64,000 bases of DNA from a virus: IMG/VR virus record IMGVR_UViG_3300029566_000004, one strand, 5' to 3'. Positions within the stretch are counted from its first letter, which is position 1; each line of letters starts with the position of its first letter. The translations under genes and the position numbers were made by a program. Shown here in pieces: positions 91 through 28,985 of the stretch. The notes under the pieces were generated by a model, which did not search any database, had not been told where the DNA came from, and was given only the letters and a program-made list of their open reading frames with translations.

Positions 91-642
91 TTATCCAGAA
101 GTGATACAATTGCGCATTTGTTGTTCCATATCGGCAATTATTTCATCTAATGATATCGGCTTGCAATCATGTGCATCTACCGATACATTATATACATATG
201 GCAAATCATTATAGAATTTGCGTTTGTCATGTGTATGGCCCGAAAGATTGAGCGTCATCTGCTTAAGTGATTCACGCTCAAGGTTGCCTGTCATACAAGG
301 GTAATGGGTCATGAAAAAGTGATGTTTATTATACTTGAGCTTAATCGCAAGCGCAACTTCAACCACATTCGGGCAAGTGCGGTAAAGCGCTTCGCGTGTA
401 TCAGTATCATGATTACCTAAAACAATATGTACTCGGCAAGGAATTTGCAGAAGATATTCCAATCCCTTCTGGTTATCTCCAAGCATTACATCGCCGAGAA
501 TATAAAGATCATCATCGGGTTGAAGTTGAAGCAGATTATGAAGAATAACCCCATTCATTTCTTCTACGTTATTAAAACCACGTGGTTCATATAAAAATGC
601 GCGGTCATGATTAAAATGGAGGTCAGAAGTTACATAAATCAT
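91..642 (-). CDS. calcineurin-like metallophosphoesterase
   Basis: 183-aa ORF; MPP motifs SDLHFNH, GDVMLGD, GNHDTD, GHTH. Confidence 0.8.
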   Translation of the reverse strand: MIYVTSDLHFNHDRAFLYEPRGFNNVEEMNGVILHNLLQLQPDDDLYILGDVMLGDNQKGLEYLLQIPCRVHIVLGNHDTDTREALYRTCPNVVEVALAIKLKYNKHHFFMTHYPCMTGNLERESLKQMTLNLSGHTHDKRKFYNDLPYVYNVSVDAHDCKPISLDEIIADMEQQMRNCITSG

Positions 643-664: not shown

Positions 665-1219
665 TTAATACACTTTATTTTCATAAGGCGATTCTAAATA
701 TAAAACCTTTACTGATATTTTCGTATCATTTTCTGGACGTTCAAATGAATTCCACATACGAGTAACAATATCATCTGGTACAATAGCATGGTAAGCGCGC
801 TGATGATTACGCTTTATCGTTTCTTTTAACGAGGCTCTGATAACAAGCACCGTTACTTCAACATTGGACAAATCCAAACGCTTTAACACTTTTAAACGAG
901 ATTTTTCAGTTAAATGAGTTGCATCAGCATATATACGAGTAGGCCCTTTGGCATCATTCAGATAATTCTGAATAGTTTCAATAAATTCATTGAAAACTTC
1001 GGTTTCATGAGTAAAATAATGGTCGTCTTTAGACTGCATATAGCTAAAGCGAATTTCATCGCGAGATACTACAGCGCAATCAGAACCGATAGCATTTGCT
1101 CGCAACCAGGTGCTTTTCCCAGAGCCAGGAGCGCCGCACATCAAGAAAAGCTGTTTCTTTTCAGGCTCTTTATTAATCTCCACAGGTTTTTTTGATTTCT
1201 TAAAAAGATTAAATTCCAT
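665..1219 (-). CDS. P-loop kinase, polynucleotide 5'-kinase-like
   Basis: 184-aa ORF with Walker A GAPGSGKST; lies between two phosphoesterases and downstream of an RNA ligase. Confidence 0.6.
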   Translation of the reverse strand: MEFNLFKKSKKPVEINKEPEKKQLFLMCGAPGSGKSTWLRANAIGSDCAVVSRDEIRFSYMQSKDDHYFTHETEVFNEFIETIQNYLNDAKGPTRIYADATHLTEKSRLKVLKRLDLSNVEVTVLVIRASLKETIKRNHQRAYHAIVPDDIVTRMWNSFERPENDTKISVKVLYLESPYENKVY

Positions 1220-1946
1220 AGATATTTCCTTTCACACGGTCATAAAACGGTATATGCTCACAAGTGTCTAAATTTAATAGTATCGCTCCACCAGACCAAA
1301 AAGAACCATTATCGATATCGATTTTATGGTCATCACCATATATAAGCAGAGTAGGCTCATGCGGCACATCCATATGTAACTCATCGACTACAAAAGGAAT
1401 TGGAGTATGACCATGGACGCATACTTCATCGGGTCGCTCACCGTTATCTTCTGGCACAATCACCTTATCACGAAAATGATTTCTGTCCCAAATTAAATCT
1501 TCACGGATAGGCAAATCTTTACGATATGGAGTATATCCCGCATGCGATAAATGCCAAATTGTGTTATTTTTTTCACTAAAATAATCCATATGTATAGGCA
1601 GTGTGCGCAAACGATCCAACCATACTTTGCGCTCTTCTGGGGTCTCTTTTAACCAGCCCCTATATGTATCATAGCCGTCATTCACTATTACTAATTCAAG
1701 AGATTCATTGAAAGGATAGCCAGCAAGACACTCTTCCATGGCATTTATAAGCATATCTTCATGATTGCCCATCAGATAGATAAACTGCGGATTAGTGTAT
1801 ACAGCTTTGATTAATTCCCAGTTCTTATAACCACGATCGCCGCAATCGCCTAAACAAATTACTTTATCTTCTGGTTTAATATAATCGAGAATTTGCTCAT
1901 AAATATCATACATACCGTGTAGATCTGAACACACATACATCGACAT
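1209..1946 (-). CDS. lambda-phosphatase/ApaH-like metallophosphoesterase
   Basis: 245-aa ORF; motifs SDLHG, GDCGDRG, GNHE, HGHT; RBS and promoter upstream. Confidence 0.8.
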   Translation of the reverse strand: MSMYVCSDLHGMYDIYEQILDYIKPEDKVICLGDCGDRGYKNWELIKAVYTNPQFIYLMGNHEDMLINAMEECLAGYPFNESLELVIVNDGYDTYRGWLKETPEERKVWLDRLRTLPIHMDYFSEKNNTIWHLSHAGYTPYRKDLPIREDLIWDRNHFRDKVIVPEDNGERPDEVCVHGHTPIPFVVDELHMDVPHEPTLLIYGDDHKIDIDNGSFWSGGAILLNLDTCEHIPFYDRVKGNIYGI

Positions 1947-2212: not shown

Positions 2213-3643
2213 TCACATTTCTGATGCGATATCTGCATCGGCAACATCAATTGCCTCTTCAGTTATAATACCAGATAAACACTTAAATGTGAAATTCTTG
2301 TGTTTATAGGCAGTAAATGAAGGACGATTTACAATACGGACCACTACACCTTCGCGCACATGGGTTTTACCTATTGGGTCTGGACCGTCGCAGTAAGTTT
2401 CAGCAGCTTCCATTACCCATTCTCCGGGAGTTTTAGTAACATAATCAATAATTCCTTCACTATTTAGATATAGAATATTGCGGTCATTACTATCTGGAAT
2501 GCGGAGCTGCTCAAACACAGGAACAGTTTTACAACCCATTTGCTCACAACGATAACGCATATAGTCAGGAGTATATTCTACGACATTGCCATCCTCATTA
2601 GTCATAGTCATACGATATACATAGAAATCAGACTGAGACACAGGCTCTGGGATGCTAAATACACTGATTTCATCACGATAGAATTTTTTGCGCTGACCAG
2701 TTGGCTCACAGCCATATGAGAATACAGTAGTAGGACCATACTGACGCTCAAATTCTTTATCGTTTAACTTTTTATTACTTACTGATCCCATAATAGGCGC
2801 ACCAGAAGTAGTAAAACCAACAACTTCGTAGAATACTTCTTCACCCTTATGAAGTTTGCCTTCGAAGAACTTTGCGTGTGGCTCACGGAATTCATTAGAG
2901 CCATAGAAACCGCCATCGAAATTGTCAAGTACAGTACGACGAGTACCAGTTACATAACCCCAATCATAAATTGGCTTGCCGGGACGACGGAATAGTTTGT
3001 CCCAAAAAGTGCGCTTCATACCCTTAAACACTGGCAGATAACCGGTGCGCTGAGAGGTGCCATGCAATTTGAGTGTAATCTCAATCTCGTCACCAGGCTT
3101 AAAAGCGTTAAGATTATACGCAAGTTGTTCAGTATCGGCGTGCTCGTTAAATAAAGGCGCAATAGGTATATTCTTAGGCTTATTCTTACGAGTGCGGTTT
3201 GGGCTATTAAATTCATTATGAGCCTTTACCTTAGGAATATATTTATCACAAATCCCGTGGCCATTAAGCTCATGGATAACAGCGCCTTCAGTTAAGAGAG
3301 ACATATCTACACCAGTATATGCTACTGAGTCAAGAGCCATAAAGATACCATCAGAAGGTTCTCCGCGCAAACGAATAGTCTTGATGTTGCGCTTATCAGG
3401 CTCAAGATATCCACCAACATTTTTACCAGTTTCATCCTTGCGACGTACAAGATTATTCTGTGCGCAAAACTCTTCGCTTAACTGAAGCCCAGATGGGAAA
3501 TAAATACCCATATCACCAAGTTTTACATCCAGACCAACGCAAGTTTCACAGTCAAAGAACTTAGCGATTTGTAACTTATTGGCGTTCATATGTGGACGCA
3601 ACTCTTTTACTTTCACTACATAACCACAGTGAGTAATACTCAT
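2213..3643 (-). CDS. RNA ligase (Rnl2/DraRnl-like nucleotidyltransferase)
   Basis: Motif I KLHGTS resembles T4 Rnl2 KIHGTN; later EGVVVRI and YKHKNF motifs; start trimmed to ATG 3643 with RBS AAAGGAG. Confidence 0.7.
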   Translation of the reverse strand: MSITHCGYVVKVKELRPHMNANKLQIAKFFDCETCVGLDVKLGDMGIYFPSGLQLSEEFCAQNNLVRRKDETGKNVGGYLEPDKRNIKTIRLRGEPSDGIFMALDSVAYTGVDMSLLTEGAVIHELNGHGICDKYIPKVKAHNEFNSPNRTRKNKPKNIPIAPLFNEHADTEQLAYNLNAFKPGDEIEITLKLHGTSQRTGYLPVFKGMKRTFWDKLFRRPGKPIYDWGYVTGTRRTVLDNFDGGFYGSNEFREPHAKFFEGKLHKGEEVFYEVVGFTTSGAPIMGSVSNKKLNDKEFERQYGPTTVFSYGCEPTGQRKKFYRDEISVFSIPEPVSQSDFYVYRMTMTNEDGNVVEYTPDYMRYRCEQMGCKTVPVFEQLRIPDSNDRNILYLNSEGIIDYVTKTPGEWVMEAAETYCDGPDPIGKTHVREGVVVRIVNRPSFTAYKHKNFTFKCLSGIITEEAIDVADADIASEM

Positions 3644-4515
3644 TTTATATCTCCTTTCTGAACAACAGTCCAATTTAAATTTTGATAAGTCAATTTATTC
3701 ATATCTGACCAAATAATTTTTTTTGCAAGTGCTTTGTTGTCACGCTTATACTTAGGCATTGTTTTACGAATATGATTACACAGCCAATCACAAGCCTCTG
3801 TAAAAGTATTAAAACTATGTTTAAGTGCTTTAGTATCAGCATCATAAGCATATATGCATTCAGTATTATTGATAATTGCTTTGCGTGCTTTAGGATCAAG
3901 GCCCAAACGTGTAACTGCGGGCTTTGTTCCTTTCGCTACGAGTGCAGATTTATTTATTTCTGTTTTAGGCTCATAGTCCGGGAAAGGATGACCTTTTACC
4001 GTACCTCCTTGGTTCACCTCATCAAAAACAATTTTGAGAAATTCGGCATCTTCAAGAGCATTATGCGTCTGAACGAATTCCTCTTTTTTATAATAATTTA
4101 CAACTTTAATAAGAGCAATTTCTTTAATTAATCCAAAATGATTTTTAACAGTAGGAGCATAATTCACAAGGTTAGCCGCAATCAAAGAAAGTGACATTTG
4201 TGCGGTTATGCTAGTAGCTTTTTTAATTGCTTTACGCACAAATGTTAAATCTGTATTGCCATAACAGAAAAAGCGGCAAGGTGTGCCATCATTATGTTCT
4301 AATACCCAATAGAAAAAATGAGTAAATACATCATCTAAACTGGGCGCCGCTTTATTCATTCCATCAGTAATACCAGTTAAATTAGTAATAAAAGAAGTAA
4401 TTTTCTTATCGGTATAAACCATACTGGAAAATTTTGCATCTGTCTCACTAACGCAACCAATTGAAATAATTTCATTGGAAAATTGTGTTGCTTCAAAGTC
4501 AATAAAATAATTCAT
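3640..4515 (-). CDS. DnaQ-like DEDDh 3'-5' exonuclease
   Basis: N-terminal FIDFEAT (Exo I) and HNALEDAEF (Exo III, DEDDh) motifs. Confidence 0.7.
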   Translation of the reverse strand: MNYFIDFEATQFSNEIISIGCVSETDAKFSSMVYTDKKITSFITNLTGITDGMNKAAPSLDDVFTHFFYWVLEHNDGTPCRFFCYGNTDLTFVRKAIKKATSITAQMSLSLIAANLVNYAPTVKNHFGLIKEIALIKVVNYYKKEEFVQTHNALEDAEFLKIVFDEVNQGGTVKGHPFPDYEPKTEINKSALVAKGTKPAVTRLGLDPKARKAIINNTECIYAYDADTKALKHSFNTFTEACDWLCNHIRKTMPKYKRDNKALAKKIIWSDMNKLTYQNLNWTVVQKGDIK

Positions 4516-5507: not shown

Positions 5508-6345
5508 TCATGTACAGAGCATACATGGAGCAAGATTACGCCCAGTATTTAATATCTGCGTTTTATTATATTCACGCCAACGTTTAGCAATATTTTCAAT
5601 ATTTTCTATATCATAATAGAAATACTCAAAATGCAGATCTTCAATACGATCAATGTGATAATGACCCATAAGCCAAGCATATCTAATTTTGATTTTATGG
5701 CGTAATTCCTCGAGCCATTTTTCCATAGTAGTATCAACTTCACTTTGTTCAATAAAGCTAAGGAATTTATCGAAGGGGCGCATAGTAAAAGGTGCAGTAT
5801 GAGACATTACAAAATCAAATTCTGGAGAAGTTTCAAATAGCAGCTCTGCGTCTTTCATCTCTTCTGGAGTTAATTGCTCATCAGAGAACCAACCACTTAT
5901 TTTTGGATCATTATTTCCCTCGCACAAGCCAGCTCTTGCGAGACGATACCATTTATCTACAGAATAAGCACCACCAATTATTGCAACACGATAGCCGCCA
6001 ATCATATATATGCCATAGTCAAGAAAATATCGAATGCGAGGATATTTTGGCTCCATATAAATCCAATTTTGGACATTCTCGTCATAGATTTTTTGCATCC
6101 CATTAATGGATTGCGGTCTTGCTTCATGATTGCCACGTAGACAGTAATAATAACATTGCGTAGTATTTATAATAATTTCCTTGGTATCTACATCGCGTTT
6201 GTTGAGATAATAATTGAATCCTACATCACCCAATATGATTACTGCGGCCTCGTCGTCGAACACGCATGGCACACTTTGCATTGCATAAAGGCTACCATGA
6301 ACATCGCTAACCCATAACAAACCATTTTTTTAGTTTGTTACTCAT
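5508..6345 (-). CDS. metallophosphoesterase with an apparent frameshift at an A7 run near the start
   Basis: Motifs SDVHG, GDVG, GNHE, GHYH. The RBS-linked ATG at 6345 is one frame off the body; the two frames meet at the homopolymer 6325-6331. Confidence 0.6.
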
Positions 6346-15434: not shown

Positions 15435-16964
15435 TTATTTAATTCGTGTATACATTTCTCCGTCGAGAACATCAAGCATAAGCTCAAACGCAGTTTTACC
15501 TTTCATAATCTGCTCAAATAGTACAGGACTGAAGCCGCTAACGAAGGTGATACCATCTTTTACAGTCATAGGAATATTATTCTGACGAGCTTGCACATTC
15601 CAAAAGATGAGATTAGGCATCTTTAGACCCCATGCACGCCATTTATCAGCAATATGTTCCATGAGAGCACCACTATTATTATCACTCCATAGACGCGCAG
15701 CATCAAATTCCATATCTGAGATGATGATTATATTCTGAGGAATATCTTCCTTCTTCACATCAGGACGAAGTGCTATTTTAAGAAGAAGATCAAAAGTAGC
15801 TTCAATATCAGTGTTTTCACAAAGATTAGTACGGTAAATACGTGCAACCTTATCACAGAAGTCAACACCTTCAGTAGCTATCCACTGAGGACGACTAGAG
15901 AAGCTAATGTAATGTCCTGCAAAAGGTCCTTTGTTGTGTTCGGCGCAATAAAGACCAAGAGAAATAGCAACATTAATAGGTGCAGATGCCTCACTGCCCC
16001 TCATAGAACCAGAAGTATCAACAACTGCAATGCCATTAAAGGTTGCGCCTTTAAAGTAATCAGTCAAATTCTCCCAATATTTATTAACTGCCAGACGATT
16101 TATATCATCAAGAGCAGGCTCAAAGTCACTACCAAAGTCACTACACCAACCTAAACTTTTCCGCATAACATTTGTGGCGGCTGCAACGCATTCATAAGGA
16201 TGAAGCGCCTTAGCATTAACCTTAGTTTTAGTATCCTTCATGAAGTCTTCATAAGTGGTTTTGCCGATTTTCTGACGTTCAATATCGTGACGAGCAAAAG
16301 CATTGCGATAAATCATACCGGCGCGAGAAGGAATTTTGTCAAATTCAATTTCATTCCAACGTTTTGCAGACATCAGTCTTTCAAGAACACGAATACGTTC
16401 ACGAAGGCTAGAAAGTGCTTTACGATACTCACGAGAAGTAAGATTAAACTTTTGGCGAGTAAGGGTTGCAAGCTGACGGCTCTCATGGCTAGAAGTATTT
16501 TCAGATTTAAGCCATTTAGCAAGCAAAGAGGGGGTCTTGCTCTTAAGATCAAGAACAAGCTGTTGCTTCATCAGGTAGAACATCTTATCCTCAACAGGAG
16601 TTCCTACAAGAGCATAAAGATCGTCCCAGCGACCATAAAAAGGAATGTTCTCAAGATTACGAATTACATCTTCAGGATGATTTTTTGCAAGCCAGTTAAG
16701 GACAACGCGGAAGTAACGACGCTCACCCTGGCCACCGCGTACGGAGCGCAAATAAAAAAGGCACTTAAGCGCACGAAGCGCATCTTCTTCATAAGCCTTC
16801 TTAAAGAGCAGAATGCAATCTGCGTTGGAGCGGGTACGGTACGCGCCACCGAGTGCAAACATATCAAGTAGACCGCTCATAGTAGACTTGTGAGTCAGAG
16901 CACCATTCTCGGTAACAGCATAGTTGTTCGCGTTATTCATTACGTTCATAAAAGTATTAGCCAT
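15435..16964 (-). CDS. helical-domain plus vWA protein (DUF2828-like, Ro60/TROVE-like architecture)
   Basis: 509 aa; N-terminus TENGALTHKST..LLDMFA.GGA.R; C-terminal MIDAS VVDTSGSM. The family name comes from memory of similar phage proteins. Confidence 0.6.
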   Translation of the reverse strand: MANTFMNVMNNANNYAVTENGALTHKSTMSGLLDMFALGGAYRTRSNADCILLFKKAYEEDALRALKCLFYLRSVRGGQGERRYFRVVLNWLAKNHPEDVIRNLENIPFYGRWDDLYALVGTPVEDKMFYLMKQQLVLDLKSKTPSLLAKWLKSENTSSHESRQLATLTRQKFNLTSREYRKALSSLRERIRVLERLMSAKRWNEIEFDKIPSRAGMIYRNAFARHDIERQKIGKTTYEDFMKDTKTKVNAKALHPYECVAAATNVMRKSLGWCSDFGSDFEPALDDINRLAVNKYWENLTDYFKGATFNGIAVVDTSGSMRGSEASAPINVAISLGLYCAEHNKGPFAGHYISFSSRPQWIATEGVDFCDKVARIYRTNLCENTDIEATFDLLLKIALRPDVKKEDIPQNIIIISDMEFDAARLWSDNNSGALMEHIADKWRAWGLKMPNLIFWNVQARQNNIPMTVKDGITFVSGFSPVLFEQIMKGKTAFELMLDVLDGEMYTRIK

Positions 16965-17042: not shown

Positions 17043-17071
17043 ATTATATCATAATTTTTTTACTTTTTCAA
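17043..17071 (-). promoter_or_regulatory. class-1 promoter TTGAAA-N17-TATAAT
   Basis: Minus strand: TTGAAA 17071-17066, TATAAT 17048-17043; overlaps the stop of the upstream gene. Confidence 0.6.
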
Positions 17072-18276
17072 AAAAGTAATTTATGCAACTTTATTGAATT
17101 TCGAGTATAGCCATCAGATACATAAACTCTCTCAGCCGCTACTTCTTTATATTCATCTATGTGTTCATATTCATTGAGATGCGTTAAAACTAGGCTCGTA
17201 GTAACTGGATAGTCAGACTTTTTGCTCTCAGAGGCTATTCTAGTCGCAAATTCTTTATAGTCTAAAATACCATAACGTAGCGTATCCTGGAACATATTCG
17301 GAACATTTGTTCTATCCCACATGAAGAAGTTAATATCTTTTTTCTCGCACTCTGTATCAAAACGACCGGCACCATGACGAGTCATATATGTTCTTGAAAC
17401 GTAGTAAGTATTAATATAGCCGGTAAAATAACATTCTTTGAGAATTTCATTGATGTTATATAAACCAGTATGGCTAGGTGTAAGATGCGGATAATATTCC
17501 ATATTATCCTGGTCTAACAGCAAGCCCTGACCATTCTCAAAAATGACATCATCATATGAGTGTAAAAAGTCTGGACTGTCTACCAAAGCGCACTTTTTCA
17601 TCATGAATTCAAAATCTGAAATGTAATTCTGAATTGCAATTTCAGATTCTAGCGCTTTCTCTAATTCTATCGGCATTTTATGAATTTTTGTCTGGTCAAT
17701 ACGCTTTTCAGTATAATACTTCTTTAGCGATTTAAGATAGTCATATTTACCCAGATAAGACAAAGCCGCAAATTCACCGATAGAAATCCCATAGGGACTA
17801 ATGACTTCCTGCTGAAAAACGAATTCTTTATCTCTATAGCGGCATATGGTTTCATAAATACCTAAACCGCACGAGCCATGTTTTGCTACGCCGCGTTCAA
17901 TTTCTCGAGCCTGATTAATAATCATATCATAAAAGGTAGTAAATTTACACCTTTTATCAATATAAATCTTCGGGCGATTGAATAGTTTAGGCATTAACTT
18001 TTCATACTCTTCTTTGAATATCATTGGGTTACAAATGAAAGATTTGGCAATATAAGTAGATGCGCCCACAAAAGTACCCGCACCAATATGGCGAAAGATA
18101 TGTTCTCTGCCTTCTGGAGTAGTCACAGTATGTGCACGCTGAGGTCCACCATTGTGCAATACAACTATAGCGTTGTCACTTTTGGAAGCTAACCAATCGG
18201 TGACTAGTCCTTTACCTTCATCACCAAAGTTTGCTCCAATAACTGCGGATACCTTAAATTTATAAACTTCAAACAT
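17068..18276 (-). CDS. divergent adenylosuccinate synthetase family protein (PurA/PurZ-like)
   Basis: P-loop GANFGDEGKG, GGPQRAHT, GSCGLGI, FENGQGLLLD, RHGAGRF align with PurA motifs; the C-terminal TTGRRRR-type motif is not recognisable. Confidence 0.7.
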   Translation of the reverse strand: MFEVYKFKVSAVIGANFGDEGKGLVTDWLASKSDNAIVVLHNGGPQRAHTVTTPEGREHIFRHIGAGTFVGASTYIAKSFICNPMIFKEEYEKLMPKLFNRPKIYIDKRCKFTTFYDMIINQAREIERGVAKHGSCGLGIYETICRYRDKEFVFQQEVISPYGISIGEFAALSYLGKYDYLKSLKKYYTEKRIDQTKIHKMPIELEKALESEIAIQNYISDFEFMMKKCALVDSPDFLHSYDDVIFENGQGLLLDQDNMEYYPHLTPSHTGLYNINEILKECYFTGYINTYYVSRTYMTRHGAGRFDTECEKKDINFFMWDRTNVPNMFQDTLRYGILDYKEFATRIASESKKSDYPVTTSLVLTHLNEYEHIDEYKEVAAERVYVSDGYTRNSIKLHKLLF

Positions 18277-18296
18277 ACCTTTCACCTTTCTGTCAA

Positions 18297-20610: not shown

Positions 20611-20684
20611 TGGTGCGGGGCTGCGGATTTGAACCGCTTTTTCAGCTTTTTAAAGCTGAGGGTATACCTTTAGCCTAACCCCGC
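20611..20684 (-). tRNA. tRNA-like gene with a non-canonical anticodon loop (UUUAAAAA)
   Basis: Good acceptor stem, T-arm and CCA. The anticodon stem CAGC/GCUG encloses 8 nt (6 nt if the U:A pair closes); a 7-nt loop is not possible. Confidence 0.5.
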
Positions 20685-20805
20685 AATATAAAACAAAACG
20701 TATTTTTCTTCACTCACTCAAAATAATTCATTTATTGCTACATACGTTTTTATATGGTGCGGATGGAGGGATTCGAACCCTCAAGGATTTCTCCCGACGG
20801 ATTTT

Positions 20806-21540
20806 CTTACTACTCTATGTTACCATAGCCGCATTATTGCGTTGTAGTCTGGATCATGTCTTCTCCATATCTTTCGACTTAGGAGGCTGGTGTATGATCT
20901 CTACACATTTACAATCTAAATGATTGATTTAGCTCGGCGTTATCCCAGTAGGACTTTCGCCGAATTAGCCAGCATTCACTCAGAAGATTTCTCACTCTGG
21001 TGCTCTATTTGCAGAAATAGTATTTTTTCTTCTACGCCAATTTGGAGTATAAGAATGACAGTTTGGACATAATAATTGAAGATTTTCTAAACGATTGTCT
21101 GTCCTATCTCCATTAATATGATGGATTTCAAGAGTAATTGGTTGTCCTAACCACTCTGTTAATCCACAGCATTCACATTTACGTCCTCTCAATTTAATTA
21201 AAGGATTTAATGTTGTGCTGCCATTCTTTTTAATTGAATTTACTGTAAATAATGTGTAATCATAATTCTCATGATTCCATGCTTGTCCTAAAAAATGTGA
21301 GGTATCAAGTTGAAGTTCTTGACACATTTTATTTAATGAAGTTAATGCTCCGCCACTGTCTCTTGCATATCCAAGGGCTATTGCAACTTCACGCATAGAC
21401 TACGCATTTTTTACAATTTCTTCAATTTGTTCTTTTGAAAAAGATTTCCATTTTGGTTCTCTTGCCATAATATAGACCTCCTTTTTTCTTGTCTATTTAT
21501 TATGGCAGAGGCGATAGATATTTTAATCTACTCTGCCCAA
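20806..21540 (-). mobile_element. group-I-like intron carrying an HNH endonuclease ORF
   Basis: Exon ends in U. A possible P1 pairs exon ACUU with intron GAGU (U.G at the splice site). The intron ends in G. About 258 nt lie outside the ORF. Confidence 0.6.
20992..21468 (-). CDS. HNH homing endonuclease (1 in-frame TAG)
   Basis: CECCG...EIHHINGDRTDNRLENLQLLCPNCH. Strong RBS before ATG 21468; TAG at 21402-21400 is in frame with track ORF 20992-21396. Confidence 0.8.
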
Positions 21541-21608
21541 AAGTCCGTTGTGTATGCCATTCCACCACATCCGCACAGTAAGTTTTCATTTCTTTTTCTT
21601 ACATATAT

Positions 21609-21769: not shown

Positions 21770-21858
21770 TGGCTGGGGTGGAGGGATTCGAACCCCCATC
21801 TTTCGCCTCAGAAGCCCGGCATTTAGAGTGCCGTGTGTTGCCATTACACCACACCCCA
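21770..21858 (-). tRNA. amber suppressor tRNA(CUA), tRNA-Gln-like acceptor, 19-nt variable region
   Basis: Loop CUCUAAA; U1:A72, G2:C71, G3:C70, G73 and CCA as in E. coli tRNA-Gln; variable region GGCUUCUGAGGCGAAAGAU. Confidence 0.8.
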
Positions 21859-23256: not shown

Positions 23257-23330
23257 TGGCAGGGGTGCAGGGACTTGGACCCCAATCTGCGCCTTTGGAG
23301 AGCGTTATGCTGCCGTTACACCACACCCCT
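23257..23330 (-). tRNA. tRNA-Trp(CCA)
   Basis: Cloverleaf, A1:U72, G73, loop CUCCAAA, CCA; T-loop UCCAAGU is slightly atypical. Confidence 0.8.
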
Positions 23331-24231: not shown

Positions 24232-24381
24232 TGGCTGAGGTGGCAGGATTTGAACCTGCGAATGCGGGAGTCTGGCAGGCGGCTAAGGATTTGAACCTTA
24301 ATCTTTAGTTTTGGAGGCTATTATGTTACCGTTACACCAACCACCTAAAGTCCCGTGCCTTAACCTCTTGGCTACACCTCA
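24232..24381 (-). tRNA. tRNA-Gln(UUG) split between U35 and G36 by a 74-nt tRNA-like insert
   Basis: Halves 24381-24347 and 24272-24232 join into a perfect 76-nt cloverleaf (U1:A72, G73, loop CUUUGAC, CCA) resembling E. coli tRNA-Gln. Confidence 0.7.
24273..24346 (-). tRNA. tRNA-Trp(CCA)-like gene nested inside the tRNA-Gln anticodon loop
   Basis: Own cloverleaf with CCA and loop CUCCAAA; weak anticodon stem (3 bp); clear paralog of tRNA-Trp 23257-23330. Confidence 0.65.
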
Positions 24382-24411
24382 ATTTTATAATCCCAAGTGT
24401 TTTGATGAAAA

Positions 24412-24488
24412 TGGTCGGGGTGGAGGGATTCGAACCCCCGACTTTCTGCTCCCAAAGCAGACGGACTACCAAACTGTCCTACACCCCG
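24412..24488 (-). tRNA. tRNA-Pro(UGG)
   Basis: Cloverleaf, loop UUUGGGA, CCA. Confidence 0.85.
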
Positions 24489-24491
24489 AAA

Positions 24492-24568
24492 TGGCGGTAC
24501 CAAGGGGATTTGAACCCCTGTCTCCGGCGTGACAGGCCGGCATTCTAGGCCAACTGAACTATGGAACC
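24492..24568 (-). tRNA. tRNA-Asp(GUC)
   Basis: Cloverleaf, loop CUGUCAC, G73, CCA. Confidence 0.85.
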
Positions 24569-24895
24569 ATAAAGAAAGGAGAATAGAGAGAAGAAAGAAG
24601 AAAAATGTGATGAAAAATTAAAGAAATCACATTTCCAGAGCTAAAAGACTCTCTCTATGAGGATAGTCTTTTCTTTCTGCGGCAAGCAATATATTCAGGA
24701 TTTTAACCTGCAGCCCAAAGTTCAATAGTATGTTTATTAAGCACTCAATAAACAAAATACAAGAAGGATCCAAAATAATTAACTTTGGGATTTCCGTCGC
24801 AGGCCTTTATAAAAGCTTGTCAGGGAAAATTATCTTAATGACAATAATTTTATTTTTTATTAATTATAAGCTATTCACTCATTTTTTACAATATA

Positions 24896-24924
24896 ATTAT
24901 ATCATAAATTTTTTGAAAAATCAA
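24896..24924 (-). promoter_or_regulatory. class-1 promoter TTGATT-N17-TATAAT with no ORF or tRNA for about 300 nt downstream
   Basis: Minus strand: TTGATT 24924-24919, TATAAT 24901-24896. The downstream stretch 24890-24570 has only hairpins. Confidence 0.55.
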
Positions 24925-25004
24925 TGGAGCATTCGGTTGGATTCGAACCAACGACATATACGGAGGTTGCAGCTCCGCCTCTTAAGCCACTTGAGTACGA
25001 ATGC
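24925..25004 (-). tRNA. tRNA-Cys(GCA)
   Basis: Cloverleaf, loop CUGCAAC, 8-nt variable region, CCA. Confidence 0.75.
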
Positions 25005-25313: not shown

Positions 25314-25478
25314 ATATATAACTAAGTTTTGCTTTCGTTGTCTTTTTATTTTTGTGTGCTGCTAAATGACAATGCCACATATGGATTATATCCCCGGTGG
25401 TAGTTGAAACTTAGAAAATCCATCCTTTCCGCACACTTTGGCGCTCCCGGTAGGACTTGAACCTACGACGCGGTGGTT

Positions 25479-25946
25479 GCTTACACATCAGCTTACCAAT
25501 TCTTTACTACTTCCTCCAATTCATAATTTTTCGCCCAAGTAATACCTCTTACTTGACCATTTTTTGTAGGAAGAATACGAAGTCTTTTATCTGCTCCGCA
25601 CTCCTCAACTGGAACTAAATAACATTTTCCATTAAAAGTAGTTACGAAGTAATCAATTTCCTCGTTTGAGTATGTATGATGCACAATCTTACCATCTTTT
25701 CTATTACAACTTCTACAAGAAAATTTGAATGATGCACCATCATCTTCGGTATTTGATGTTTTAGCTTGAACTCGAATAAACTTTCCATTAACATCTACTA
25801 CAAAGTCATATCTCTCACAATCTCCATATGGAGTTAAAACATTATAACCAAGTTTTAGAAATGCTAACATTGTTTCAAGTTCTGTAATATTTCCTTTTTG
25901 TTTACTATTCATTTATCTTTTCATAAAGAATAGATAAGGTCAGGTA
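25479..25946 (-). mobile_element. intervening sequence that is almost entirely a PD-(D/E)XK endonuclease ORF
   Basis: Only 34 nt upstream and about 14 nt downstream of ORF 25493-25912 lie outside coding sequence. Confidence 0.6.
25493..25912 (-). CDS. PD-(D/E)XK homing endonuclease, I-Ssp6803I-like
   Basis: 139 aa; GNITE...LGYNVLTPYGD.ERYDFVVD....IRVQAKT matches the D...(E/Q)xK core of intron-associated PD-(D/E)XK nucleases (family recalled from memory). Confidence 0.6.
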   Translation of the reverse strand: MNSKQKGNITELETMLAFLKLGYNVLTPYGDCERYDFVVDVNGKFIRVQAKTSNTEDDGASFKFSCRSCNRKDGKIVHHTYSNEEIDYFVTTFNGKCYLVPVEECGADKRLRILPTKNGQVRGITWAKNYELEEVVKNW

Positions 25947-25988
25947 AACAGCCACCTGCTCTGCCAGCTGAGCTACAGGAGCATATAT

Positions 25989-26223: not shown

Positions 26224-26295
26224 ATTTTAAGATTGGAGTCGAACCAATGACCTTCAGTTTTGCAGACTGATGCTCTACCTCTGAGCTACTCTCCC
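26224..26295 (-). pseudogene. tRNA-Cys(GCA)-like gene with a broken acceptor stem
   Basis: D, anticodon (CUGCAAA) and T arms are intact, but 5' GGGAGAG cannot pair with 3' CUUAAAA. Confidence 0.45.
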
Positions 26296-28823: not shown

Positions 28824-28871
28824 TAACATACTCCTTTGATTAAATTTACAAGACACTTTTTTGTTATTATT

Positions 28872-28935
28872 ACTCTGCCAACTGAGCTACCAGTCCAAAT
28901 GAACTGGATAGGATTCAAACCTGCGGCAACGAGAA
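28872..28935 (-). other. permuted tRNA halves (3' half, then 4-nt linker, then 5' half) in a 5' leader
   Basis: The minus strand reads a T-arm plus CCAGUUC, then AUUU, then GGACUGG UA GCUC AGUUGGCA GAG. The two acceptor strands are complementary. Confidence 0.4.
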
Positions 28936-28985
28936 ATAATTTAATCTTATTTGCTGTTAGTGTCTTTCCTTTTTCTTACATATAT

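Follow-up and report, generated by a model that had tools for sequence, protein, structure and literature searches.

The locus examined here raises the question of whether one transfer RNA (tRNA) can act as the intron of another. It lies in a 64,000-nt stretch of DNA from a gut phage, IMG/VR record IMGVR_UViG_3300029566_000004 (the window, meaning the whole stretch), in which a tRNA-Gln(UUG) gene on the minus strand carries a tRNA-Trp(CCA) sequence within its anticodon loop. An earlier note on this DNA, made from its letters, had suggested that the inner tRNA might be removed by tRNA processing and the outer tRNA sealed by a ligase of the phage. We describe the nested gene and its alleles, further cases in other phages, and the explanations that may account for them.

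The nested gene and its alleles

The outer gene is in two parts. Its 5' half (24347–24381, minus strand; 35 nt, TGAGGTGTAGCCAAGAGGTTAAGGCACGGGACTTT) carries tRNA positions 1–35 and ends ...CUUU, the last base being U35, and its 3' half (24232–24272, minus strand; 41 nt, GACTCCCGCATTCGCAGGTTCAAATCCTGCCACCTCAGCCA) runs from G36 to an encoded CCA. When the two are joined, ARAGORN returns a 76-nt tRNA-Gln(ttg) with all stem pairs intact, the four stems being complementary across the split and the 7-nt loop reading CUUUGAC; the flawless tRNA-Gln(UUG) of the earlier note is borne out. The exon sequences at the expected spliced U35-G36 junction are GGGACUUU and GACUCCCG, the spliced junction reads GGCACGGGACUUUGACUCCCGCAU, and the two precursor junctions are ACUUUAGGUGG and CUGCCAGACUCC.

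Between U35 and G36 lie exactly 74 nt (24273–24346, minus strand; AGGTGG...GCCTGCCA, with termini AGGTGGTTGG...GCCGCCTGCCA) running from A1 to an encoded CCA, which is exactly the extent of a mature tRNA. ARAGORN calls this block tRNA-Trp(cca), and it matches Rfam RF00005 at 49.5 bits against a gathering score of 29. Uninterrupted alleles match the boundaries claimed earlier base for base (T before the first A, G after the last A), with neither duplication nor microhomology. The insert is a diverged paralog of a free tRNA-Trp(CCA) in the same array (23257–23330, minus strand; ARAGORN), as the note had proposed, the two being 77% identical. RNAfold applied to the 150-nt precursor recovered the outer acceptor, anticodon and T stems together with the inner acceptor and T stems, and both the minimum free energy (MFE) and centroid folds place the junctions in an internal loop of 4 nt/7 nt between the outer anticodon stem and the inner acceptor stem. 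The earlier finding of no open reading frame (ORF), ribozyme or bulge-helix-bulge (BHB) motif in the insert also holds, since Rfam gives a tRNA match alone and the junctions fall in that internal loop. ARAGORN run on all 150 nt calls 'tRNA-Stop(tta)' with the intron shifted by one base. We reject this call because the uninterrupted alleles fix the insertion between U35 and G36, and the same shift applied to two other nested genes described below (L024 and L027) would yield Glu.

No second tRNA-Gln was found by ARAGORN and Rfam in the 64-kb window, in agreement with the earlier note, which had seen no other Gln(UUG) gene in the array. The three Rfam-only tRNA matches in the window are a damaged tRNA-Cys(GCA)-like gene (26230–26290, minus strand; 55 bits over model positions 6–65, without a matching 3' acceptor strand), a Glu-like gene and one weak match. 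For the glutaminyl-tRNA synthetase (GlnRS) we take the identity elements to be those of Escherichia coli, namely U1:A72, G73, G2:C71, G3:C70, U35 and G36; the outer tRNA-Gln has U1:A72, G73, G2:C71, U35 and G36, on the understanding that the host enzyme may differ from that of E. coli. At 3:70 the window has A:U, and two other nested genes, L031 and L024, have G:C. Codon usage (CAA, 1.24%; CAG, 1.29%) is uninformative, and the sole candidate from a promoter scan is a weak site abutting the tRNA start.

The same nested gene is present in two other sequences. One (L160; ENA assembly ERZ28576353 scaffold_76, 150 kb; sample SAMEA3708778, in which only the nested allele is present) is 100% identical to the window over 12.4 kb. 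The other (L025; OOWZ01000007, human gut, 147 kb) is an independent assembly whose inner tRNA differs from that of the window by two substitutions and whose adjoining 108 nt of flank differ by six, with the 76 outer nucleotides identical. Close relatives, which are 95–98% identical over aligned stretches of the array region, carry the tRNA-Gln in the same position as the window, between tRNA-Pro and tRNA-Lys, and they hold several alleles of it. The gene is uninterrupted in four (L007, L015, L166 and L167); the 5' half of the window gene is identical to all four of these and the 3' half to that of L015. In four others (L159, L161, L162 and L163) an insert of about 470 nt lies between G36 and A37 and encodes a 138-aa protein of family PF11645 (I-Ssp6803I-type, PD-(D/E)XK), and in two more (L164 and L168) an insert of about 790 nt with an ORF of the same protein family occupies the same bond. 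In L165 the gene has been replaced by a different Gln gene. We had considered that the ORF-type inserts might lie between U35 and G36 with G36 changed to A, which would give an ochre suppressor; re-alignment places them between G36 and A37 with the Gln anticodon intact, and that placement was rejected.

The nested state is a derived and polymorphic natural allele, and its presence or absence among close relatives is exact to the base, as in mobile introns. When arrays were sampled family-wide by way of the neighbouring DnaJ-like gene, only the closest relatives gave arrays, and none of these was nested.

A second lineage and further nested tRNAs

The nesting is found in a second lineage, on a 162-kb contig (L031) whose tRNA-Gln differs from that of the window at about nine positions. 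Its inner tRNA-Trp lies at the same U35-G36 bond, is 86% identical to the inner tRNA of the window, has a perfect 6-bp anticodon stem and is the sole tRNA-Trp among 23 tRNAs. The differences between the outer genes of the two lineages include two fully compensatory stem changes (A3:U70 to G3:C70 and A51:U63 to U51:A63), and none is disruptive. Two sequences about 91% identical to L031 in the flanks (L233 and L234) lack exactly those 74 nt; the first came from sampling through the radical-SAM neighbour of L031, which gave 22 loci, none of them nested.

The inner tRNA of the window is 97% identical to that of L025, 86% to that of L031 and 77% to the free tRNA-Trp of the window itself. The inner tRNAs of the two lineages are mutual closest relatives, nearer to one another than to any free tRNA-Trp, which excludes a single recent accident. 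The element is therefore either old or has moved between Gln genes with base precision. We note that the free tRNA-Trp of the window and of L007 has the T loop TCCAAGT (C at position 55) and not TTCAAGT, and that L015 and L025 keep TTC. We also note a tRNA-like gene directly downstream of the nested Gln in L031 (5137–5255, minus strand), with the acceptor stem TATGAGA/TCTCATA, a canonical T arm and about 46–65 extra nucleotides between the D and T arms.

Further cases were found with an exact-anchor scan, a scan for T-loop spacing and a delete-and-rescan script. In L024 and L029 a cloverleaf of 71–72 nt, with a 7-bp terminal stem, a canonical T arm, a GCCA end and a non-standard anticodon loop, interrupts another tRNA-Gln between U35 and G36. 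In L027, a 2.3-kb contig, a 71-nt cloverleaf with an ACCA end and a non-canonical T loop lies at the same bond of yet another tRNA-Gln, and the tRNA-Lys(UUU) of this contig is split between U34 and U35 by a genuine tRNA-Phe(GAA). ARAGORN rejects two of the three inserts of L024, L029 and L027 and Rfam scores the outer gene instead. L090 has a tRNA-Phe(GAA) between U34 and C35 of tRNA-Arg(UCU). L129 has elements of 62 and 67 nt after U34 of tRNA-Pro(UGG) and tRNA-Lys(UUU), respectively, each consisting of a 7-bp terminal stem, a T arm and an ACAA tail (Rfam tRNA, 36.8 and 39.9 bits). Nesting is general in phages, with Trp, Phe and tRNA-shaped modules found inside Gln, Lys, Arg and Pro genes. 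The insert is preceded by a U in every case, at bond 34-35 or 35-36, and U is the base preferred at position −1 by bacterial RNase P. The nested gene is the sole Gln(UUG) seen in the window, in L031 with its 23 tRNAs and in the otherwise non-redundant array of L027.

As a control for chance, each of the 1167 ARAGORN tRNAs in 153 sequences was deleted and the joined flanks were rescanned. This returned the real nested cases and two spurious calls of poor quality (L140 and L151), and nothing else. Another candidate, an Ile in an outer gene with an 8-nt loop (L051), was set aside as doubtful. In GenBank phages, queries with the window locus and with L090, L027 and L129 gave no record reaching 80% coverage of a nested composite. 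A Gln gap pattern found no nested Gln in IMG/VR. A search of 185,579 species genomes found none either and gave only four chance matches. The loci listed by the T-loop-spacing scan (120) are mostly unrelated tandem T-arm hairpins; such hairpins (GGTTCRANYCC), 25–40 nt apart and outside recognisable tRNAs, occur in many viral contigs (for example L046 513–595, L068 259–354, L041 518–576 and many of L033–L152). A separate family of 79–84-nt inserts is found in phage tRNA anticodon loops (L044 6371–6536; L143 2224–2380 and 3871–4023; L043 approximately 1510–1650), its members having in common a 5' motif, (A/G)GAGTAAAC(T/C), and, towards the 3' end, a hairpin resembling a T arm.

The outer genes are well conserved, each remaining a perfect cloverleaf. 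In the four distinct interrupted Gln genes (window, L031, L024/L029 and L027) 100% of 80 cells are paired, with seven of the 20 pairs changed on both sides, and slid controls pair in 31–46% of cells. Within the nested gene, substitutions between L024 and L029, and between the window and L025, are confined to the insert, and the outer gene has none. The inserts themselves grade from real tRNAs through non-decoding cloverleafs to minihelices of acceptor stem and T arm, and an acceptor/T-arm minihelix is the minimal substrate of RNase P. That the insert need not be a working tRNA, as seen in L024/L029, L027 and L129, points to selection on a tRNA shape recognised by RNase P rather than on decoding.

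A proposed route for splicing and its alternatives

In our view, these comparisons are best accommodated by a tRNA-shaped intron that would be excised by tRNA end-processing and sealed by a phage ligase, a reading to which we give something near an even chance, though not quite that. The 74-nt tRNA-Trp would be an intron-like element, the anticodon loop that holds it would belong to a functional phage tRNA-Gln(UUG), and the window case would be one of a wider class of phage tRNA genes interrupted after a U, at bond 34-35 or 35-36, by a tRNA or tRNA-shaped module. Transcription of the tRNA array would give a precursor whose two cloverleafs both fold. A cut by RNase P on the 5' side of the inner A1 would leave ...CUUU with a 3' OH, and one by a 3'-end endonuclease of the tRNase Z/BN type, right after the inner A76, would leave 5'-P-GAC...; Thermotoga maritima tRNase Z is reported to cut pre-tRNA that contains CCA exactly after A76 (PMC1540738). 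The products would be a free tRNA-Trp and a tRNA-Gln with a nick at the U35-G36 bond, its two halves kept paired through the acceptor, D and anticodon stems; such a nicked tRNA would belong to the class of substrate repaired by phage T4 Rnl1. The phage RNA ligase would then seal the nick, with a kinase and phosphoesterases healing the ends should these be of a different kind. At the DNA level the element would behave as a mobile intron, its spread or retention probably aided by the destruction of a homing-endonuclease target in the loop. The idea of a tRNA as intron has gained comparative support from recurrence, a second lineage, polymorphism, other modules and perfect outer genes, while its functional part stays a proposal.

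Candidates for the sealing and healing steps are encoded in the window, and the RNA ligase, kinase and phosphoesterases named in the earlier note are all recognised at the level of homology. The candidate sealing enzyme is an ATP-dependent RNA ligase (2213–3673, minus strand; phrog_968, E = 4.4e-63). It matches PF09414 (23.1 bits) and the DraRnl-type model TIGR02306 (E = 8.8e-12), both below cut-off, and is 45% identical to its nearest GenBank relatives, the RNA ligases of Bacillus phages PBC2 and Kirov; it has no sequence match in the PDB. A P-loop protein resembling polynucleotide kinase (665–1219, minus strand; PF13671 AAA_33, E = 1.3e-17; phrog_505, E = 1.1e-20), with a weak match to bacterial Pnkp, may heal ends, and a metallophosphoesterase (91–642, minus strand; PF12850; phrog_547, E = 4e-41) may heal 3' ends. 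The same gene cluster holds a second metallophosphoesterase (1209–1946, minus strand; PF00149, E = 4.7e-14), and a third is found at 5508–6320. An RNase T-like exonuclease lies at 3640–4515. L090, which was found through T-loop spacing without reference to any protein, carries, at a distance of 7.5 kb from the nested pair, a homologue 62% identical to the ligase; the 119 other scan loci listed have none. In more distant relatives, Thg1-like proteins are encoded beside the same gene cluster (L153 9184–10014 and L156 14146–15030). Thg1-like proteins repair tRNA 5' ends, and these genes add to the dense tRNA-repair gene set of this phage group.

Several points weigh against splicing. The earlier claim that the insert folds into its own cloverleaf with an encoded CCA holds by ARAGORN and Rfam, but the cloverleaf is imperfect because its anticodon stem has just three Watson–Crick pairs (A27/A43 and C31/A39 are mismatched; the corresponding stems have four pairs in L025 and six in L031), and the insert alone has an RNAfold z of −0.4. 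The inner tRNA of L090 ends in CCC and the inserts of L129 in CAA, not CCA. Since the halves of the window gene are identical to an intact allele, constraint acting after insertion is not measurable in the window lineage, and the outer genes might already have covaried before the inserts arrived independently or by transfer. The ligase is also found in relatives with intact Gln alleles. In Bacillus-type hosts RNase Z is inhibited by CCA, and the nearest GenBank relatives of the ligase belong to Bacillus phages; the enzyme proposed for the cut after A76 is conjectural. Disrupted tRNA genes may be merely tolerated, since the arrays hold a damaged tRNA and ORF inserts of about 470 nt. The evidence throughout consists of DNA sequence and predicted folds.

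The best-surviving alternative is that the Gln gene was disrupted and is never spliced. A tRNA copy, probably by way of an RNA or cDNA intermediate, would have landed in the loop, the phage tRNA-Gln would be dispensable, and only the inner tRNA, if anything, would be expressed; the allele would be kept because it splits a PD-(D/E)XK homing-endonuclease site and serves as repair template after cuts. We regard this as a serious possibility, if one less likely than not. The loop is a homing hot spot, as indicated by the two endonuclease-ORF inserts between G36 and A37 (L159, L161–L164 and L168; also L021), 1 nt away from the tRNA insert, and so the latter could persist through drive or immunity at the DNA level without any splicing. 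The earlier note had not considered this. Immunity alone is insufficient, however, to account for inserts that retain their terminal stem, T arm and 3' tail after losing their decoding features. The stretch 24347–24926 of the window is 99.5% identical to L159, compared with about 90% to the intact L166 and L167, which suggests conversion tracts, and the identity of the two halves to an intact allele means that selection since insertion is not required. The homologous insert nevertheless occurs in two lineages at 14% divergence with both outer genes still perfect. No ribozyme model matches the ORF inserts, in which the ORF leaves only about 50 nt uncovered, so that unspliced disruption may be common, and a decayed tRNA (26230–26290) lies in the same array; yet no decayed outer gene was seen among at least nine nested cases, and the nested genes are the sole Gln, Lys or Phe copies in otherwise non-redundant arrays.

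The ORF-type Gln inserts have features of their own. Their ends pair with each other (UUAGAU/AUCUGA and CAGAGAC/GUCUUAG; L159 7305–7775, L168 3910–4699 and L021), and their last bases, CAA, are complementary to UUG, so that a single long helix would continue the anticodon stem. L021 has the same insert, with identical termini, in the tRNA-Gln of a different phage. In the window itself a tRNA-Asp(GUC)-like gene with a perfect cloverleaf (25439–25982, minus strand) is interrupted between U35 and C36 by 468 nt, which consist almost wholly of an ORF (25493–25912) for a 139-aa PF11645 protein of the I-Ssp6803I type (PD-(D/E)XK), leaving no room for a ribozyme and giving no Rfam match. Inserts of about 470 nt are found in Gln, Pro, Asp, Lys and Met genes of relatives (L025, L007, L015, L031 and L159–L168).

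A further alternative, which we consider unlikely, is that the nested insert is a true intron excised by another nuclease, such as a structure-specific RNA endonuclease of the phage, possibly related to the PD-(D/E)XK proteins. The same enzyme would remove the ORF-type inserts as well; the kinase and phosphoesterases would then heal the ends, and either the ligase or host RtcB would seal them. Such a nuclease would explain ribozyme-less ORF inserts in otherwise perfect tRNA genes of two lineages, the mutual pairing of their ends and the pairing of the 3'-terminal CAA with the anticodon UUG. No candidate RNA endonuclease was identified, however, and PF11645 proteins are known as DNA homing endonucleases. 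The full set of healing and sealing genes includes a kinase, which is needed only for 5'-OH ends, and RNase P does not make these; against this, the precursor fold of the window has no BHB and the inserts, being tRNA-shaped, suggest the work of tRNA-processing enzymes. Finally, an assembly artefact or chimera, which might be suspected because tRNA arrays are repetitive and that of the window is mosaic, has a negligible probability, given that the same junctions occur in independent assemblies from different assemblers (window/L160, L025, L031, L024, L029 and L027), that the nested copies differ by single-nucleotide polymorphisms and that the boundaries are exact to the base.

Several other features of the region were noted. 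A tRNA with anticodon CUA and a long variable arm, a candidate amber suppressor, lies at 21770–21858 (minus strand), and another tRNA with an 8-nt loop (ARAGORN 'taaa') at 20611–20684 (minus strand); TAG is rare as a stop codon (four of the 22 ORFs examined). A 509-aa DUF2828/DUF7788 protein, labelled 'RNA-binding protein' in PHROGs (E = 1e-122), is encoded at 15435–16964 (minus strand), and a weak Rfam match to the Y-RNA-like YrlA (31.6 bits) is found at 28844–28951 (minus strand), with a stronger one (40.6 bits) inside the tRNA array of L129; the protein and the YrlA match may form a phage Ro/Y-RNA-like module. An adenylosuccinate-synthetase homologue (17068–18285, minus strand; PF00709, PurZ-like PHROG), whose place beside the tRNA array is conserved among relatives, may be a sign of modified purine metabolism.

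Known systems and meaning for phages

Comparison with self-splicing group I introns in the tRNA anticodon loops of bacteria and phages, such as those of tRNA-Leu(UAA) and of tRNA-fMet with I-Ssp6803I (PMC3984707), indicates that these likewise follow directly after a U and share with the nested insert both presence/absence polymorphism and a link to homing endonucleases. The window holds one itself, a 735-nt intron at the classical U34-A35 site of tRNA-Leu(UAA) (20755–21574, minus strand), with an HNH endonuclease ORF (20992–21396) and an Intron_gpI match of 42.8 bits in Rfam, below the gathering score. The nested insert, in contrast, has only 74 nt, lacks a catalytic core (P3–P9, about 200 nt or more), gives a tRNA match alone in Rfam at permissive thresholds and ends ...GCCA, with A in place of the terminal G. 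Being itself a tRNA, it cannot self-splice, and its size, the lack of a ribozyme match and the terminal A rule out a group I intron.

The archaeal and eukaryal BHB introns (EndA and ligase; reviewed in PMC4090602) resemble the proposal made here in that removal is by protein and joining by an RNA ligase. The nested insert differs in having no BHB, in lying at bond 35-36 or 34-35 and not 37-38, in belonging to a bacterial phage and in that the proposed nucleases are those of tRNA end maturation. As the junctions fall in the 4/7-nt internal loop, a BHB intron is ruled out, and no Pfam match to EndA was found among about 30 window ORFs scanned. There is a parallel for functional RNA inside a tRNA intron, in that an archaeal tRNA-Trp intron encodes a box C/D RNA.

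The circularly permuted and split tRNA genes of Cyanidioschyzon merolae and Nanoarchaeum (PMC3978253) also combine cuts by RNase P and tRNase Z with joining. In those genes, however, the halves, either permuted or unlinked, meet at a BHB, with no second tRNA between them; the nested gene is not of the split or permuted kind. In the break-repair system of phage T4 (PrrC, Pnkp and Rnl1; PMC3400036, PMC2610378) the substrate is a tRNA nicked in its anticodon loop and the phage supplies ligase, kinase and phosphatase, as here. The T4 break, however, is damage inflicted by the host, while here it would be programmed by gene structure, and the window ligase is DraRnl-like rather than Rnl1. In tRNA punctuation (mitochondrial polycistrons, MALAT1 mascRNA) a tRNA fold is the signal for cutting by RNase P and RNase Z, as we propose, but there the RNAs on either side are left unjoined, and the signal is not known to lie within a second tRNA.

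Since the arrangement departs from each known class of intron or disrupted tRNA in the features that define the class, we regard it as new in kind as an arrangement. A full-text literature search, whose coverage was incomplete and whose silence is absence of evidence only, found neither a tRNA nested in a tRNA nor a tRNA-shaped intron in a phage tRNA gene; as the earlier note had surmised, the arrangement is apparently undescribed. The outer tRNAs of the nested cases all have U at position 34. Gln UUG, Lys UUU and Arg UCU are in the U34-modified group favoured by anticodon nucleases. It is possible, though we hold the view with some doubt, that the cases represent a new class of tRNA intron in phages, in which the intron is a tRNA or tRNA-shaped module released by RNase P and a cut after CCA, sealed by a ligase, mobile among U34-type Gln, Lys, Arg and Pro loops and perhaps arising by the reverse reaction.

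More speculatively, the element may have originated when a tRNA that had been cut in its anticodon loop received a mature tRNA by ligation and the product was copied into DNA. An origin at the RNA level fits better because the ends of a mature tRNA are hard to obtain by DNA recombination; the genes in the array are 3–6 nt apart. Variants of the Mauriceville retroplasmid of Neurospora reportedly acquired tRNA insertions including the CCA end, driven by reverse transcriptase. They offer a precedent for the copying of a whole mature tRNA, with ends from +1 to CCA, into DNA, the difference being that the recipient was a mitochondrial plasmid and the site was not within a tRNA.

Standard tRNA finders silently miss the outer genes, and so the tRNA repertoires of phages are under-counted. 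Even if the genes are unspliced, exact insertions of mature-tRNA size recur at single anticodon-loop bonds, which amounts to an unexplained mutational process. If they are spliced, the nested tRNA would be a new kind of intron and would define a new route of RNA splicing in the bacterial world, built from housekeeping tRNA-processing enzymes and a phage repair ligase; it would be a third route of tRNA splicing beside self-splicing and BHB/EndA, and it would give introns a plausible origin by reversal of their own splicing chemistry. With splicing, phage RNA ligases and kinase-phosphatases would also have a programmed substrate in addition to the damage done by anticodon nucleases, and tRNA-targeting immunity, the drive of homing endonucleases and the origin of introns would be linked.

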